A stretch of 64,000 bases of DNA from Bacteroidia bacterium (GTDB lineage Bacteria > Bacteroidota > Bacteroidia > J057 > JADKCL01). Position numbers and translations under genes: made by a program. The stretch lies in contig JACJYV010000006.1 in the NCBI GenBank assembly GCA_020635905.1, positions 24,060-88,059 on the forward strand, read 5' to 3'. Below, in pieces: positions 3,339-7,957 of this stretch (position 1 is the first letter of the stretch; each line of letters starts with the position of its first letter). Below the pieces are notes generated by a model. The model was not told where the DNA came from. It saw only the letters and a list, made by a program, of their open reading frames with translations, and made no database searches.

Positions 3339-3512
3339 GAGAAAAACCATATCCATTACCCCATGAATCCAGTCCAGGCAAATTATAATGCATTATCAGT
3401 AAACAAATACTGCATTGAGTGATTGTGAAGACGATTTAAAAAATATCTACCTTGGTGAAAACAATCCCCCACACGCCTCTGACGCAAGCGCAATTTGTGG
3501 GGCTTTTTTTAC

Positions 3513-4328
3513 TCACTTCACCGTCAATACTCCCTGCATCACGGTCACGGCTTTGCCCTGCAACAGAGTTCGTTCGCCGTTGACCTTTACCTTCACCATG
3601 CCGCCGCGGGGAGAAGCCTGGTAGCCAATCATTTCCTTTTTGCCCAGTTTTTCCATCCAGTAGGTGCCCAGGCAGCAATGTGCGCTCCCGGTCACAGGAT
3701 CCTCGTCTATACCAGACTGAGGGGCAAAAAACCGCGAAACGAAATCCTTCTGGCCGTTGGCGCCCCGGGCCGTGATCATCAGGCCGCGCGCATCCAACTC
3801 GCGGATCAGGCGAAAATCAGGACGATACTCCCGCACCTCCTGCTCAGAAGCCAGCTCAATCAACAGATCAAACTTACTTTTCCCCACAAAAACAGGCTCC
3901 AAACCCAGTTTTTCCAGCCAGTCAGCGGAAACTTCCGTTCCTTTCACGGGAATAGAAGGAAAGTCCAGGCTGATCCAGTCGCCTGCCTTACTGGCCCGTA
4001 AAATCCCACTCCGTGTATCAAAAACCAGTTCGCGCTCCTCAGACCTGAGCTCTGTTTCCCAGATAATATGAGCCGTGGCCAGGGTCGCGTGACCGCACAA
4101 ATCCACCTCAATGGTTGGGGTAAACCAACGCAGATCAATGGTGCCATCCCGCAAAATAAAAAAAGCCGTCTCAGCCAGGTTCATTTCGGCCGCCACCTGC
4201 TGCATCCAGTGGCTGGATTTGGATTGCATGAGGTAGCACACGGCCGCAGGATTACCCTGAAAAGGTACGTCCGTGAATGCATCCACCTGAAAAATGGGAA
4301 TTATGGGTGTTTTTGTGTGATCAGACAT
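3513..4328 (-). CDS. PhzF family isomerase/epimerase
   Basis: QVDAFT..GNPAAV, AETAF, EVDLCGHATLATA and EDPVTGSAH motifs. Confidence 0.92.
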   Translation of the reverse strand: MSDHTKTPIIPIFQVDAFTDVPFQGNPAAVCYLMQSKSSHWMQQVAAEMNLAETAFFILRDGTIDLRWFTPTIEVDLCGHATLATAHIIWETELRSEERELVFDTRSGILRASKAGDWISLDFPSIPVKGTEVSADWLEKLGLEPVFVGKSKFDLLIELASEQEVREYRPDFRLIRELDARGLMITARGANGQKDFVSRFFAPQSGIDEDPVTGSAHCCLGTYWMEKLGKKEMIGYQASPRGGMVKVKVNGERTLLQGKAVTVMQGVLTVK

Positions 4329-4386
4329 AGTGCACAATTATTCATATTTTTAAGCCATTCTCATAGGACAAAAATTTGACACGAAA

Positions 4387-5091
4387 ATGAATTTGAAAGA
4401 CAAAACTGTACTCCTGACGGGCGGAAGCCTGGGAATTGGCAAAGCAACTGCTGCCTTATTGATTGAAAAAGGCGCCAAAGTCGCCATTACAGGCCGCGAC
4501 GCGGCCCGGGTTCAGGCTGCTGCCGACGAAATCGGGGCTCTCGCCATTTGCGCTGACGTGGGCAACCCTGACGACATTGACCGCACGTATGCTGAATTTC
4601 TGCAGGCTTTTGGCCACCTGGATGTCTTGATCAATAATGCGGGCATTGGAGGTTCATTTGCCCGGCTTGAAGCTGTGGAATGGGATGATTTTGAGCAGGT
4701 TTTCCGGGTGAATGTATTTGGCGCCGCCCTCATGGGCAAGCATGCTGCCCACTTGTTCATGGCCCAAAACCATGGCAACATTATCAACATTGGATCCACG
4801 GCCTCCCTCAAAGGCTTTGCCCGGGGCAGTGTTTACTCAGCCAGCAAATTTGCCCTTCGCTCTCTGAGCCAAAGCTGGGCAGATGAACTTCGGAAGCACA
4901 ACGTGCGGGTCATGCAGATCAATCCCAGCGAAGTAAAAACTGCCTTCGCCAATGCAGATCGGGTTGAACGCCCGGAGGAGGACAATAAATTACGCTCTCA
5001 GGAAATCGCACATGCCATAATAACAGCCCTGGAAATGGATGACCGGGGATTTATCCCTGAATTAAGTGTCTGGGCCACGAATCCATTCTAA
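4387..5091 (+). CDS. Short-chain dehydrogenase/reductase
   Basis: TGGSLGIG, NNAGIG and YSASK motifs. Confidence 0.92.
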   Translation: MNLKDKTVLLTGGSLGIGKATAALLIEKGAKVAITGRDAARVQAAADEIGALAICADVGNPDDIDRTYAEFLQAFGHLDVLINNAGIGGSFARLEAVEWDDFEQVFRVNVFGAALMGKHAAHLFMAQNHGNIINIGSTASLKGFARGSVYSASKFALRSLSQSWADELRKHNVRVMQINPSEVKTAFANADRVERPEEDNKLRSQEIAHAIITALEMDDRGFIPELSVWATNPF

Positions 5092-5106
5092 CTCAGATTT
5101 TCCTGA

Positions 5107-5597
5107 ATTCCGTCAATCTATTGACTGAATTAACATTAATTGCGTCAATATAGTGACGGAATTAGCTATTTTTTAATTGATTGTCCTCATTCTCCTCCCC
5201 TGTTTTGGCTCCCGCTGTTGCTCAGAGAGGAAATGGATGCTCCAAAAGCCCAAGCAAAGGCCTCAATCCCTGCAATTGGGCTTTTGGAGTTGGCAAGTGC
5301 ATTTTCTGCGGCAAGCTATCAGAGGCTGATGCCCAAAAAACAGGAAAAATCCACATCGCATTTTGATCAATTCCGTCAATTTATTGACGGAATTAACATT
5401 AATTCAGTCATTATAGTGACGGAATTAACGAAATTTTCATAAAAATCTGAAGTACCCAACCTGAGATCCGGGACACACTCTCCTGATTTACAGACAAATA
5501 CATGCTAAAACAGAGCATTTTTTAGGAAAATCATTAATTACGTCAATTAATTGACTAAATTAACGTTAATTGCGTCAACAAGATGACTGAAATGAGC
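5107..5597. repeat. Three ~60-bp copies of a double-palindrome repeat (5107-5166, 5369-5430, 5537-5597)
   Basis: Each copy is two tandem imperfect palindromes of type AATTCCGTCAAT-NN-ATTGACGGAATT joined by AACATT/AACGTT; 5369-5394 is a perfect 12-bp inverted repeat with a 2-nt spacer. Confidence 0.9.
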
Positions 5598-6728
5598 ATA
5601 ATTCAGAGGGCAATAAAGAAAACCATTATCCAAAGCCTGATCCCCAACAAAGTGATCATATTGGTTGGACCACGCCGGGTAGGAAAAACAATTTTAATCA
5701 AACAAGTCATCACGGAATTAAATGAACCCTTTTTGCTGCTAAATGGGGAAGATTTTGCAGTTCAGGAGCTTCTGGCCAGAAGAAGCGTACAGAACTACGT
5801 CAATATCATGGGAGACAAGAAGCTTTTGGTGATCGACGAGGCCCAAAAAATCCCTGAAATAGGATATATCCTGAAATTGATGGTAGATGAAATCGAGGGC
5901 ATCAGGATTTTAGTAACCGGGTCTTCGGCCTTCGACATTGACAATATGACGGGAGAGCCGCTTACTGGCCGAAAAAAGACCTTCAACCTGTACTCACTTT
6001 CAGAGCAGGAGCTGGACCAGATAGAGAGCCCCATTGAAAAAAAAGACAACCTGAGATCCAGGTTGGTGTACGGAAATTATCCTGAGCTCCTCACCTTGAA
6101 TGATCCCCGCGACAAAGCAGATTATTTGAAAGAAGTCGTTAATTCCTATCTCCTCAAGGACATTCTGACTTTCGAAAATATTCGCAATTCAGATAAATTA
6201 CTCAATCTCCTTCGCTTGATTGCCTTTCAGATTGGGGGTGAAATTTCGCTTCAGGAATTGGGACAACAACTTTCCATGAGCAAAAACACGGTGGAAAAAT
6301 ACCTCGATCTGCTCTCCAAAGTATTTGTGATTCACCAGGTTAGCGGCTTCAGCAGGAACCTAAGGAAAGAAATAACCAAGAGCAGTAAATGGTATTTTCT
6401 CGACAACGGGTTGCGGAATATTTTGATCGCCAATGTGAACCCTATCGAACTCAGAAATGACCTGGGGCAGCTTTGGGAAAATTATATCATCAGTGAAAGG
6501 ATCAAGCACCAGACTTATAACAGGGTTTTGGTCAACAATTACTTTTGGCGAACCTACGATCAGCAGGAAATTGATTGGGTGGAGGAAAGGGAAGGAAAAT
6601 TATTTGGCTATGAATTCAAATGGAGTCCTAAAAAAAGGCCCAAAGCACCCCTGGCCTGGACAAAAAATTATGATGAATCTGAATTCGGGGTGATCAGTCA
6701 GGAAAATTACCTCGAATGGATCAGATAA
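5583..6728 (+). CDS. AAA_14 ATPase with C-terminal DUF4143 (HTH + PD-(D/E)xK-like) domain
   Basis: Walker A GPRRVGKT, Walker B IDEAQ, TGSS, YFLDNGLRN and C-terminal WRT..QQEID...YEFK. Confidence 0.9.
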   Translation: MTEMSIIQRAIKKTIIQSLIPNKVIILVGPRRVGKTILIKQVITELNEPFLLLNGEDFAVQELLARRSVQNYVNIMGDKKLLVIDEAQKIPEIGYILKLMVDEIEGIRILVTGSSAFDIDNMTGEPLTGRKKTFNLYSLSEQELDQIESPIEKKDNLRSRLVYGNYPELLTLNDPRDKADYLKEVVNSYLLKDILTFENIRNSDKLLNLLRLIAFQIGGEISLQELGQQLSMSKNTVEKYLDLLSKVFVIHQVSGFSRNLRKEITKSSKWYFLDNGLRNILIANVNPIELRNDLGQLWENYIISERIKHQTYNRVLVNNYFWRTYDQQEIDWVEEREGKLFGYEFKWSPKKRPKAPLAWTKNYDESEFGVISQENYLEWIR

Positions 6729-6808: not shown

Positions 6809-7957
6809 ATGAGGAAAATCTCCCTGGCAAAATTAATTCTCTTGTGGCTGTTGCTGTTGCTTCAATTTCCCACCAAAATCACTGCCCAACCAAAAGGGCA
6901 AAATCCCAACACAGTTTTCGAACAATTCTGGACCATCATGGACCAGAATTATGCCTTTTTTGAGCTCAAAAAGATTGACTGGGAAGCTGTTCACGAGGAA
7001 TATAGCCACAAAATAACCGCCCATACAAGCGAGGACGAACTATTCAATCTTTTGGTGGAAATTCTGCGCCCTTTCAATGATGCGCACATCAAACTGAAAA
7101 CAACGGGAGCAAACAGACGGAGCTTCAACGGCACCCGCTTGTCGGGCTTCAGTGAGGAATTTCCAACAGACAGCCTGAAAACCCAATATTTCGAAACGGT
7201 GAAAAATAGCCTCAGTTCCATGGGATTTGATTCGCTAAAATTTCTGGGGCCAGTGCTGAGCGGGAAAAATGCCATTTACAACCACCACACCTTTGAATAT
7301 GCTGAATCAGGTGAATTTGCCTACGTGAAGATTTCCTGGTTTTTCTACGATTGGCTGGAAATTCAAAAAACAGGAGCCCGCAAAGACGGACAGAAATTTC
7401 TGGATGGATTTCGTTTGATTTTGGATAAAATGGCTTCTCAAAAGGGTTTGATCCTGGATCTGCGCAATAATATTGGTGGGGTAAGTGGCTTGCCACAGCG
7501 CCTTGCGGCTAATTTTGCAACTGAAAAATTCATTGGAGAATACACTTGTGAGCGCAAAAAAGCAGGGCATGAGTCCTTCACCAAAGTCAAATCTGTGTGG
7601 GTAAAACCCAAAAAGGAAAATCCCTGGCTCAAGCCAGTGGTTTTGCTCGTTAACGACGAAACGGTCAGTGCTTCAGAAGAATTTGTCCTGATGATGAAAA
7701 ACCTGCCTCAGGTAAAAGTGGTGGGAGTTCCCTCCCAGGGCGCCCTTTCTGATATTTACGAGCAAAAATTGTCCAATGGCTGGAGCCTTTCGCTCTCCAA
7801 TATGCGTTTCTATTCAAGCGAAAAGGTATGTTATGAAAATGTGGGCATTCCCGTGGATGTTGAAAGCAAAAACACCCGGAGGGACCTGAATAGCCAGGTT
7901 GACGCTGTGTTGAAAAAGGGGTTGGAAACCCTCAGAGAAATGCTTGCTTCCCCTTGA
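6809..7957 (+). CDS. S41 family peptidase (tricorn-core-like), secreted
   Basis: Signal peptide; LILDLRNNIGG, TVSASEEF and GIPVD motifs. Confidence 0.88.
   Translation: MRKISLAKLILLWLLLLLQFPTKITAQPKGQNPNTVFEQFWTIMDQNYAFFELKKIDWEAVHEEYSHKITAHTSEDELFNLLVEILRPFNDAHIKLKTTGANRRSFNGTRLSGFSEEFPTDSLKTQYFETVKNSLSSMGFDSLKFLGPVLSGKNAIYNHHTFEYAESGEFAYVKISWFFYDWLEIQKTGARKDGQKFLDGFRLILDKMASQKGLILDLRNNIGGVSGLPQRLAANFATEKFIGEYTCERKKAGHESFTKVKSVWVKPKKENPWLKPVVLLVNDETVSASEEFVLMMKNLPQVKVVGVPSQGALSDIYEQKLSNGWSLSLSNMRFYSSEKVCYENVGIPVDVESKNTRRDLNSQVDAVLKKGLETLREMLASP

Follow-up and report, generated by a model that had tools for sequence, protein, structure and literature searches.

A private lattice of palindromic boxes before an AAA_14–DUF4143 ATPase gene of the PDC-S01 family, a probable operator of the gene itself

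Genes and domains at the locus

The window analysed here is a stretch of 64,000 nucleotides from a Bacteroidia bacterium (assembly GCA_020635905.1, contig JACJYV010000006.1, positions 24,060 to 88,059), in which three pairs of palindromic boxes precede a gene for an ATPase-nuclease. This gene (5583..6728, plus strand), assigned by Pfam, PADLOC and an AlphaFold2 (AF2) model, combines the domains AAA_14 and DUF4143. It is flanked by a short-chain dehydrogenase gene (4387-5091) and an S41 peptidase gene (6809-7957). Two ORFs upstream of the dehydrogenase gene, 3495-4001 (168 aa) and 4068-4379 (103 aa), have no Pfam match. The AAA_14 domain scores 92.0 bits against a gathering cut-off of 27 (residues 22-143), and the DUF4143 domain 143.2 bits against a cut-off of 28.1 (residues 192-348). 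The PADLOC model PDLC04789 is matched with E = 1.3e-157, residues 7-380 aligning to model positions 2-373 of 375, and the encoded protein is a full-length member of PDC-S01, a phage-defence candidate of PADLOC with the Pfam make-up AAA_14 (PF13173) plus DUF4143 (PF13635) and corresponding to COG1373.

The initial annotation placed the start of the gene at the ATG at 5583. This codon does lie inside the sixth box, as had been described, but as a start it is less likely than the ATG at 5592 (MSIIQR...), at the 3' edge of the same box. The latter is probably the true start, because 52 of 81 orthologous loci have a single in-frame ATG, which aligns with it.

The AF2 model, built on 78 orthologues with a mean pLDDT of 89.6, consists of an AAA+ module, a winged helix-turn-helix (HTH) and an alpha/beta core at residues 294-381. 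Across these orthologues the Walker A (G29-T36) and Walker B (D85-E86) motifs are invariant or nearly so. The predicted winged HTH (6189..6398, plus strand; residues 203-272, with a weak HTH_11 match at 219-247) comprises helices at 203-215, 223-230 and 234-246 and a two-strand wing at 250-272. Its third helix is the predicted recognition helix, and the first residue of this helix is K234 (codon 6282..6284, plus strand). The C-terminal part (6462..6725, plus strand) is recognised from conserved residues and the model as a restriction-endonuclease-like PD-(D/E)xK domain, in which E305 and D331 are invariant and E344 and K346 at least 90% conserved among the 78 orthologues. The winged HTH and nuclease-like C-terminus attributed to this protein type in the initial annotation are thus supported by both the model and these four residues. 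A PDB search with the protein sequence returned P-loop matches only. In Foldseek, the top matches are the archaeal AAA+ protein 2fna, followed by Apaf-1, RuvB, and ORC or Cdc6/Orc1 on DNA.

Layout of the six boxes

Direct reading of 4700-5900 and a repeat finder both recover the six palindromic boxes in three pairs that had been noticed before. Each pair forms a unit of 58 bp, close to the earlier estimate of about 60 bp, and contains two 26-bp palindromes whose starts are 32 bp apart; the joint, previously given as AAC(A/G)TT, reads AACATT or AACGTT. The general form of a unit is H-2-H'-6-H-2-H', where H is AATTCCGTCAAT and H' its reverse complement. Five of the six boxes fit AATTCCGTCAAT-NN-ATTGACGGAATT with 0-3 mismatches, a pattern not matched once when the window was shuffled 100 times. 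The sixth departs further from the consensus, with 28.5 bits in a position-weight scan versus 34-40 bits for the other five.

No strand is assigned to the units or to the spacers between them. Distal unit 1 (5106..5163) consists of palindromes at 5106-5131 and 5138-5163 joined by an AACATT linker, and its four half-sites agree with AATTCCGTCAAT at 12, 11, 11 and 11 of 12 positions. It is followed by spacer 1 (5164..5368; 205 bp, 46% GC). Distal unit 2 (5369..5426), also with an AACATT linker, contains a perfect consensus palindrome at 5369-5394 and a second one at 5401-5426, and is separated by spacer 2 (5427..5535; 109 bp, 35% GC) from proximal unit 3 (5536..5593). This last unit, composed of two more degenerate palindromes (5536-5561 and 5568-5593) with an AACGTT linker, spans a promoter-like linker and both candidate start codons (5583 and 5592). 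Units 1 and 2 are identical at 53 of 58 positions, and unit 3 matches them at 47 and 44 of 58, respectively. The distance between unit starts is 263 bp from the first to the second and 167 bp from the second to the third, corresponding to 25.0 and 15.9 helical turns of 10.5 bp. The distal units therefore lie 167 and 430 bp upstream of the proximal one, or 15.9 and 41.0 turns. Both distances between successive unit starts are congruent to 7 modulo 32 as well as being near whole helical turns; this congruence and the near-whole-turn spacing may be due to chance.

The two spacers show no similarity to other sequence in the genome or to any of 110 related loci. No remnant of an AAA_14 gene was detected in them by tblastn. 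A 100-aa ORF over units 1 and 2 (5140-5442) was treated as spurious because it has no Pfam match and its frame passes through the palindromes. Within spacer 1, at 5240-5289, lies a perfect 14-bp inverted repeat, CTCCAAAAGCCCAA ... TTGGGCTTTTGGAG; this hairpin is located about 150 nt past the stop codon of the dehydrogenase gene and has no T-run. The fold of spacer 1 as a whole is insignificant (z = -0.97).

Restriction of the box to one locus

To look for occurrences of the box unrelated to the ATPase gene, the complete assembly was searched with the box pattern and scanned with position weights. Only the six dyads of this locus were found in 8,476,869 bp, with scores of 28-40 bits, and the next best site reaches 22 bits. 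A dispersed repeat of the REP or MITE type was rejected, since the genome holds no further copies.

Conservation of the lattice in orthologues

About 100 orthologues from several phyla, at 58-76% identity overall, carry the same lattice of alternating half-sites directly upstream of the gene, with 12-nt arms, 2- and 6-nt spacers and a 32-bp period. A scan of one genome per species yielded 80 loci at 62-76% identity, distributed over Saprospiraceae, Lewinellaceae, Cytophagales, Flavobacteriales, Bacteroidales, Rhodothermales, Calditrichia, a deltaproteobacterial MAG and others. In nearly all 80 the array stands just 5' of the start codon. Its common layout is ATTGACnnAATT, a 6-nt linker (TAGCTA, AACGTT or AATGTA) and AATTnnGTCAAT, repeated 1-4 times with the 32-bp period. 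The closest orthologue in the set of relatives (L007/L040) has boxes at -47 and -15, exactly as in the window. The arms vary from locus to locus, yet jointly, and include TTGACGG, TTGACTA, TTGACCC, TTGAGCT, TTGAACG and TTGCGCT. A lack of the box in orthologues would have separated it from the gene; when this was tested, the orthologues were found to carry the box or a co-varying version of it.

Array size ranges from 2 to 9 phased half-sites. Many orthologues have a single dyad abutting the ATG (for example L074, L090 and L037), and in most the array is contiguous and free of spacers. Distal clusters occur in a minority (L057, L089, L094, L083 and L068), and the window unit at -477 is the farthest seen. 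In all 49 orthologous loci with a clear seed the dyads stay within the 300 bp upstream, none being found farther out than -300 or past the gene, which argues against terminal repeats. Transposon ends were rejected on the same count of 0/49 loci with a downstream dyad, the metagenome locus L121 being an exception.

The distribution of the gene is patchy. It is absent from 10 of 11 genomes of the same family, the eleventh (G003) having just a match of 29% identity, and it reaches up to 72% identity in another family of the same order. No neighbouring gene is conserved, the largest neighbour cluster covering 4 of the 80 loci. In close pairs of loci from different contexts, DNA similarity begins 50-160 bp before the start codon, at the edge of the array, and stops within about 0-70 bp of the stop codon. 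Because these edges coincide with the array and the end of the gene, the two form one unit of inheritance, and the pattern suggests a discrete transferable cassette without a visible mobility gene. Pairs with similarity confined to array and gene include L084/L088, L085/L105, L046/L062, L078/L083 and L052/L058, among others. The short-chain dehydrogenase gene upstream has homologues at 53-57% identity in four genomes of the same family; none of these shares neighbours within 1.5 kb, and no empty site can be defined.

A reverse search with the exact 22-nt box core found it in five metagenome contigs and in no viral contig. Three of the five (L121-L123) carry a homologue of the gene and boxes with CCGTCA. 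On L121 there are arrays before and after the gene (3770-3830 and 4990-5045), and on L122 an array follows the gene (1500-1580). The homologue on L123 has its own array, and an orphan two-box array lies 2.5 kb downstream (4335-4400) in AT-rich non-coding DNA; this orphan array is followed by 1.4 kb of 28%-GC DNA without an ORF of 80 aa or more. The remaining two contigs hold a single palindrome, TTCCGTCAAT-TT-ATTGACGGAA (L124:8522-8543 and L125:7154-7175), which lies in GC-rich DNA, has no AATT flanks and is not accompanied by an AAA_14 homologue on the contig. They are identical over the approximately 260 bp read around the palindrome, and its resemblance to the box is probably a chance one, unrelated to the arrays.

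These observations bear on the possibility that the boxes mark the end of a mobile cassette, serving as recombination or cleavage sites through which the DUF4143 nuclease would move or exchange the gene, with units 1 and 2 as scars of past turnover. Such a role would account for a gene that is missing from 10 of 11 genomes of its own family yet present at 62-76% identity in other families and phyla, for similarity in close pairs that begins precisely at the array and does not extend past the gene, for the arrays on both sides of the L121 gene, and for the unrelated 205-bp sequence enclosed by units 1 and 2. A two-ended element is nevertheless not the rule, given the 0/49 orthologous loci with a downstream dyad, and neither a recombinase nor a target-site duplication was seen. 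The fixed position of the boxes relative to the ATG and the promoter-like box embedded in them point instead to a role in expression, so that recombination or cleavage as the function of the boxes is considered very unlikely.

A promoter-like element within the array

The promoters of Bacteroidetes have the -7 consensus TAnnTTTG. In the window, a weak -7-like box, TAATTGCG, is proposed at 5567..5574 on the plus strand, at the junction of linker and half-site in unit 3, with two mismatches to this consensus. At the same position, formed by the linker and the next AATT, orthologues often read TAAATTTG, which matches TAnnTTTG. Of 79 loci, 16 have a perfect TAnnTTTG no more than 45 nt from the ATG, compared with 2.5% of random 45-mers, and 30 others have it with one mismatch. 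As the element usually stands 3-20 nt from the ATG, leaders would be very short. Given the weakness of the window's own -7 box, coverage of the core promoter by unit 3 is inferred rather than read directly. A sigma-70 promoter and terminator scan, whose model is unsuited to Bacteroidia, yielded no excess of sites over shuffled sequence and was set aside.

Co-variation of the half-site core with residue 234

The initial annotation proposed that the boxes might co-vary with the HTH of the neighbouring protein. Such co-variation was found, and it centres on residue 234 of the predicted recognition helix, which tracks the core of the half-site. K234 occurs together with a GTCA core in 54 of 55 loci, G234 or S234 with a GC(T/G)CA core in 14 of 14, and R234 with a TTCA core in 6 of 6, the latter in two separate clades. 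The sole exception with K234, L077, also has the substitution N235R and a unique core. Further loci agree with this pattern: R234 with TGAA in L010-L012, and S234 with TGAGC in L008. The proteins on L121 and L123, which were found through the box and not through the gene, have K234 with GTCA cores.

The association was also examined with a branch-coincidence scan of all variable columns, on a tree built without columns 217-262 and containing 8 operator-switch branches among 154. The column that coincides best with the switches is position 234: of its 7 changes, 5 fall on operator-switch branches (hypergeometric p = 1.7e-6); after correction for some 330 columns this becomes p of about 6e-4, in a test that ignores branch lengths and draws on about 8 switches. 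The next columns, positions 220 (p = 0.0017) and 238 (p = 0.009), both belong to the HTH region. An independent-pairs sign test of residue 234 against operator class has 2-4 pairs, with which p < 0.05 is unreachable. In L072 and L078 the operator has switched from AGCT to AGCG while position 234 has stayed the same, and a search of these two for a convergent residue found no shared substitution. As judged from these alignments, the half-site core co-evolves with residue 234 of the predicted recognition helix, through few independent switches.

Recognition by a different host transcription factor, or formation of an RNA or DNA hairpin acting as attenuator or terminator, would place the function of the boxes outside the ATPase. 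The palindromes are able to fold in principle, and compensation between the arms alone would be expected of an RNA stem too. However, 166 of 267 arm mismatches (62%) are not wobble pairs on either strand, Rfam gives just two sub-threshold chance matches (a plant miRNA family and RAGATH-22), and the arrays are situated at the promoter-like element or upstream of it. A foreign factor is opposed by the co-variation of the boxes with the ATPase's own recognition helix and by the fact that no gene besides the ATPase is co-inherited; with no other copy in the genome, the boxes also define no regulon. This pair of explanations is accordingly rated as highly improbable, even more so than the use of the boxes as cassette ends.

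Autoregulation as the best explanation

The reading favoured here, with a probability of roughly 0.7, is that the winged helix of the ATPase binds the boxes and thereby autoregulates its own gene. The boxes are taken as the protein's own sites because its relatives share their layout and because the box changes together with the recognition-helix residue. The privacy of an autoregulatory operator is seen at two levels, with six dyads in 8.48 Mb at this locus and, in 49 orthologous loci, dyads confined to at most 300 bp upstream of the gene. The comparative evidence, namely the layout in orthologues and the co-variation at residue 234, thus lends weight to the original suggestion of operator sites for the ATPase itself. 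The other original suggestion, recognition sites of a solo-gene defence or mobile system, is compatible with an array and gene that behave as a single transferable cassette. Physical binding, the sign of regulation (repression, not activation), looping and the position of the transcription start are the inferred elements of the autoregulatory scheme.

Under autoregulation, the winged HTH, with its recognition helix beginning at K234, would read the GTCA/TGAC core of every 12-nt half-site. These cores are 10 and 22 bp apart and the 32-bp repeat corresponds to about three helical turns, so that bound subunits would lie on one face of the DNA. Lying over the promoter-like linker and the start codon, the proximal unit (5536-5593) should, when occupied, block RNA polymerase. 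Through this autorepression, levels of a potentially dangerous ATPase-nuclease would stay low and self-limited. The near-consensus distal units could be auxiliary operators of high affinity, supplying the weak proximal site by cooperative binding or by looping, possibly through AAA+ oligomerisation. The near-integral helical spacing of the units is consistent with such a role. On the other side, units 214 and 477 bp upstream, with unrelated spacers, go beyond what simple repression needs, none of the 49 orthologous loci has a dyad beyond -300, and orphan arrays without a following gene exist in contigs L121-L123.

Comparison with known DNA-binding ATPases and operators

PDC-S01, described as an ATPase joined to a PD-(D/E)xK domain, is reported to rank fourth in abundance among the defence candidates of prokaryotes, with about 39,000 detected copies and validation pending (PMC12988326). 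It has been classed as an untested candidate for defence (bioRxiv 10.1101/2024.01.29.577857), and one member gave no protection to E. coli B against T4, T5 and T7 (bioRxiv 10.1101/2024.09.26.614923). DUF4143 itself appears in PMC3424549 as a PD-(D/E)XK family without known function. The papers on the family found by full-text search are classification and census papers, in which no DNA target, operator or autoregulation is described. The regulatory logic proposed here is a familiar one, in a family without a described DNA target, and it comes with a specific and testable recognition rule. A cognate site beside each gene and a candidate specificity residue make this family of unknown function approachable by experiment, and would also supply orthogonal repressor-operator pairs of natural origin. 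If the sites have no role beyond autoregulation, they represent a tidy new case of self-limited expression of a risky nuclease.

One such familiar example is DnaA, an AAA+ ATPase with a C-terminal HTH that binds repeated boxes before its own gene and autoregulates it, the multiple sites permitting ATP-dependent oligomerisation. DnaA boxes are asymmetric 9-mers that are present at oriC and across a regulon too. The window protein resembles DnaA as an AAA+ protein with an HTH and with repeated boxes before its own gene. In contrast to those of DnaA, its sites are dyads that follow a 32-bp lattice and belong to a single gene; the protein also adds a nuclease-like domain and has no replicon context.

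The C proteins of restriction-modification systems provide another parallel. They are small stand-alone HTH dimers that bind two adjacent dyads, the C-boxes, which are private palindromic operators over the promoter of a mobile nuclease module; expression is thereby delayed and self-limited, and operator and HTH specificity co-evolve. The locus shares with them private palindromic sites, the putative operators, at a seemingly mobile, nuclease-encoding module, as well as site sequences that co-evolve with the HTH. In contrast to the C proteins, the HTH is here a domain of the ATPase-nuclease itself, and the arrays comprise up to 9 half-sites with a 32-bp period.

The likeness to archaeal Orc1/Cdc6 is structural as well as positional. 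As in those proteins, an AAA+ module is followed by a winged helix (Foldseek match to 2qby, E = 2.9e-6), and repeated boxes adjoin the gene, as do the partly inverted origin recognition boxes of Orc1/Cdc6. The combination typical of initiators, an AAA+ protein with a winged HTH next to repeated boxes, is therefore present at this locus. Unlike the Orc1/Cdc6 case, there is no evidence of an origin, the chromosomal contexts are unrelated, the units are mostly spacer-free in orthologues, and a PD-(D/E)xK domain that Orc1/Cdc6 lacks is present. In a check for an AT-rich unwinding element, the spacers were found to have 46% and 35% GC against 49.7% for the genome, and most orthologues have no spacers.

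This likeness raises an alternative in which the arrays are an assembly platform or working substrate, on whose phased sites the AAA+ protein would oligomerise with ATP much as Orc1/Cdc6 and DnaA do on their own boxes. The loaded complex would be the functional form, for instance a sentinel that sets the nuclease active once released or remodelled, and autoregulation a by-product. It draws on the AAA+ plus winged-HTH fold, for which Foldseek finds 2fna, ORC subunits and Cdc6/Orc1 on origin DNA (2qby), and on the 2-9 phased half-sites, which go beyond the needs of a simple repressor. The distal near-consensus units of the window, the orphan arrays without a following gene on L121-L123 and the conserved nuclease residues point in the same direction. 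The single dyad abutting the ATG in many orthologues (L074, L090, L037), however, better fits a promoter operator, and the cassette has no replicon context, as it stands in unrelated chromosomal neighbourhoods. An assembly platform as the primary function is thus judged unlikely, although it and autoregulation are not mutually exclusive.

A broader and still doubtful proposal, held to be slightly more plausible than the platform as such, is that PDC-S01 proteins are ATP-driven nucleases that bind DNA at specific sequences, that the promoter of each gene reveals the site its product recognises, and that the array loads an oligomer of the Orc1/Cdc6 type. Residue 234 would then set the sixth base of the half-site, with K, G and R reading ...TGAC, TGAG and TGAA, respectively. 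Displacement or remodelling of the oligomer, whether by infection or by transfer of the cassette into a naive cell, might unleash the nuclease or lead to exchange of the cassette, and the distal units of the window and the orphan arrays of L121-L123 would be functional parts or footprints of this activity.

Arrays before paralogous genes

Two paralogues are encoded in the same genome, a good one on contig C27 (40% identity) and a distant one on contig C28 (22%), each with its own, different palindromes upstream. Beyond the orthologues, paralogues at 40-50% identity keep the AATT-N6-AATT frame with quite different arms; in those at 43-48% identity the arms are unrelated, as in ACCATAAAAATT-CGCGCG-AATTTTTATGGT. 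The C27 paralogue (577963-579060) is preceded on the minus strand by an array at about 579085-579230, with approximately 3.5 units of ATTCACCAAATATTATnTTTTTTnGTGAAT and a 32-bp period, whose sequence is unrelated to the window boxes. The C28 AAA+ paralogue (362530-363720) has two long upstream palindromes, TGCAAATT...AATTTGCA, at about 362190-362400.
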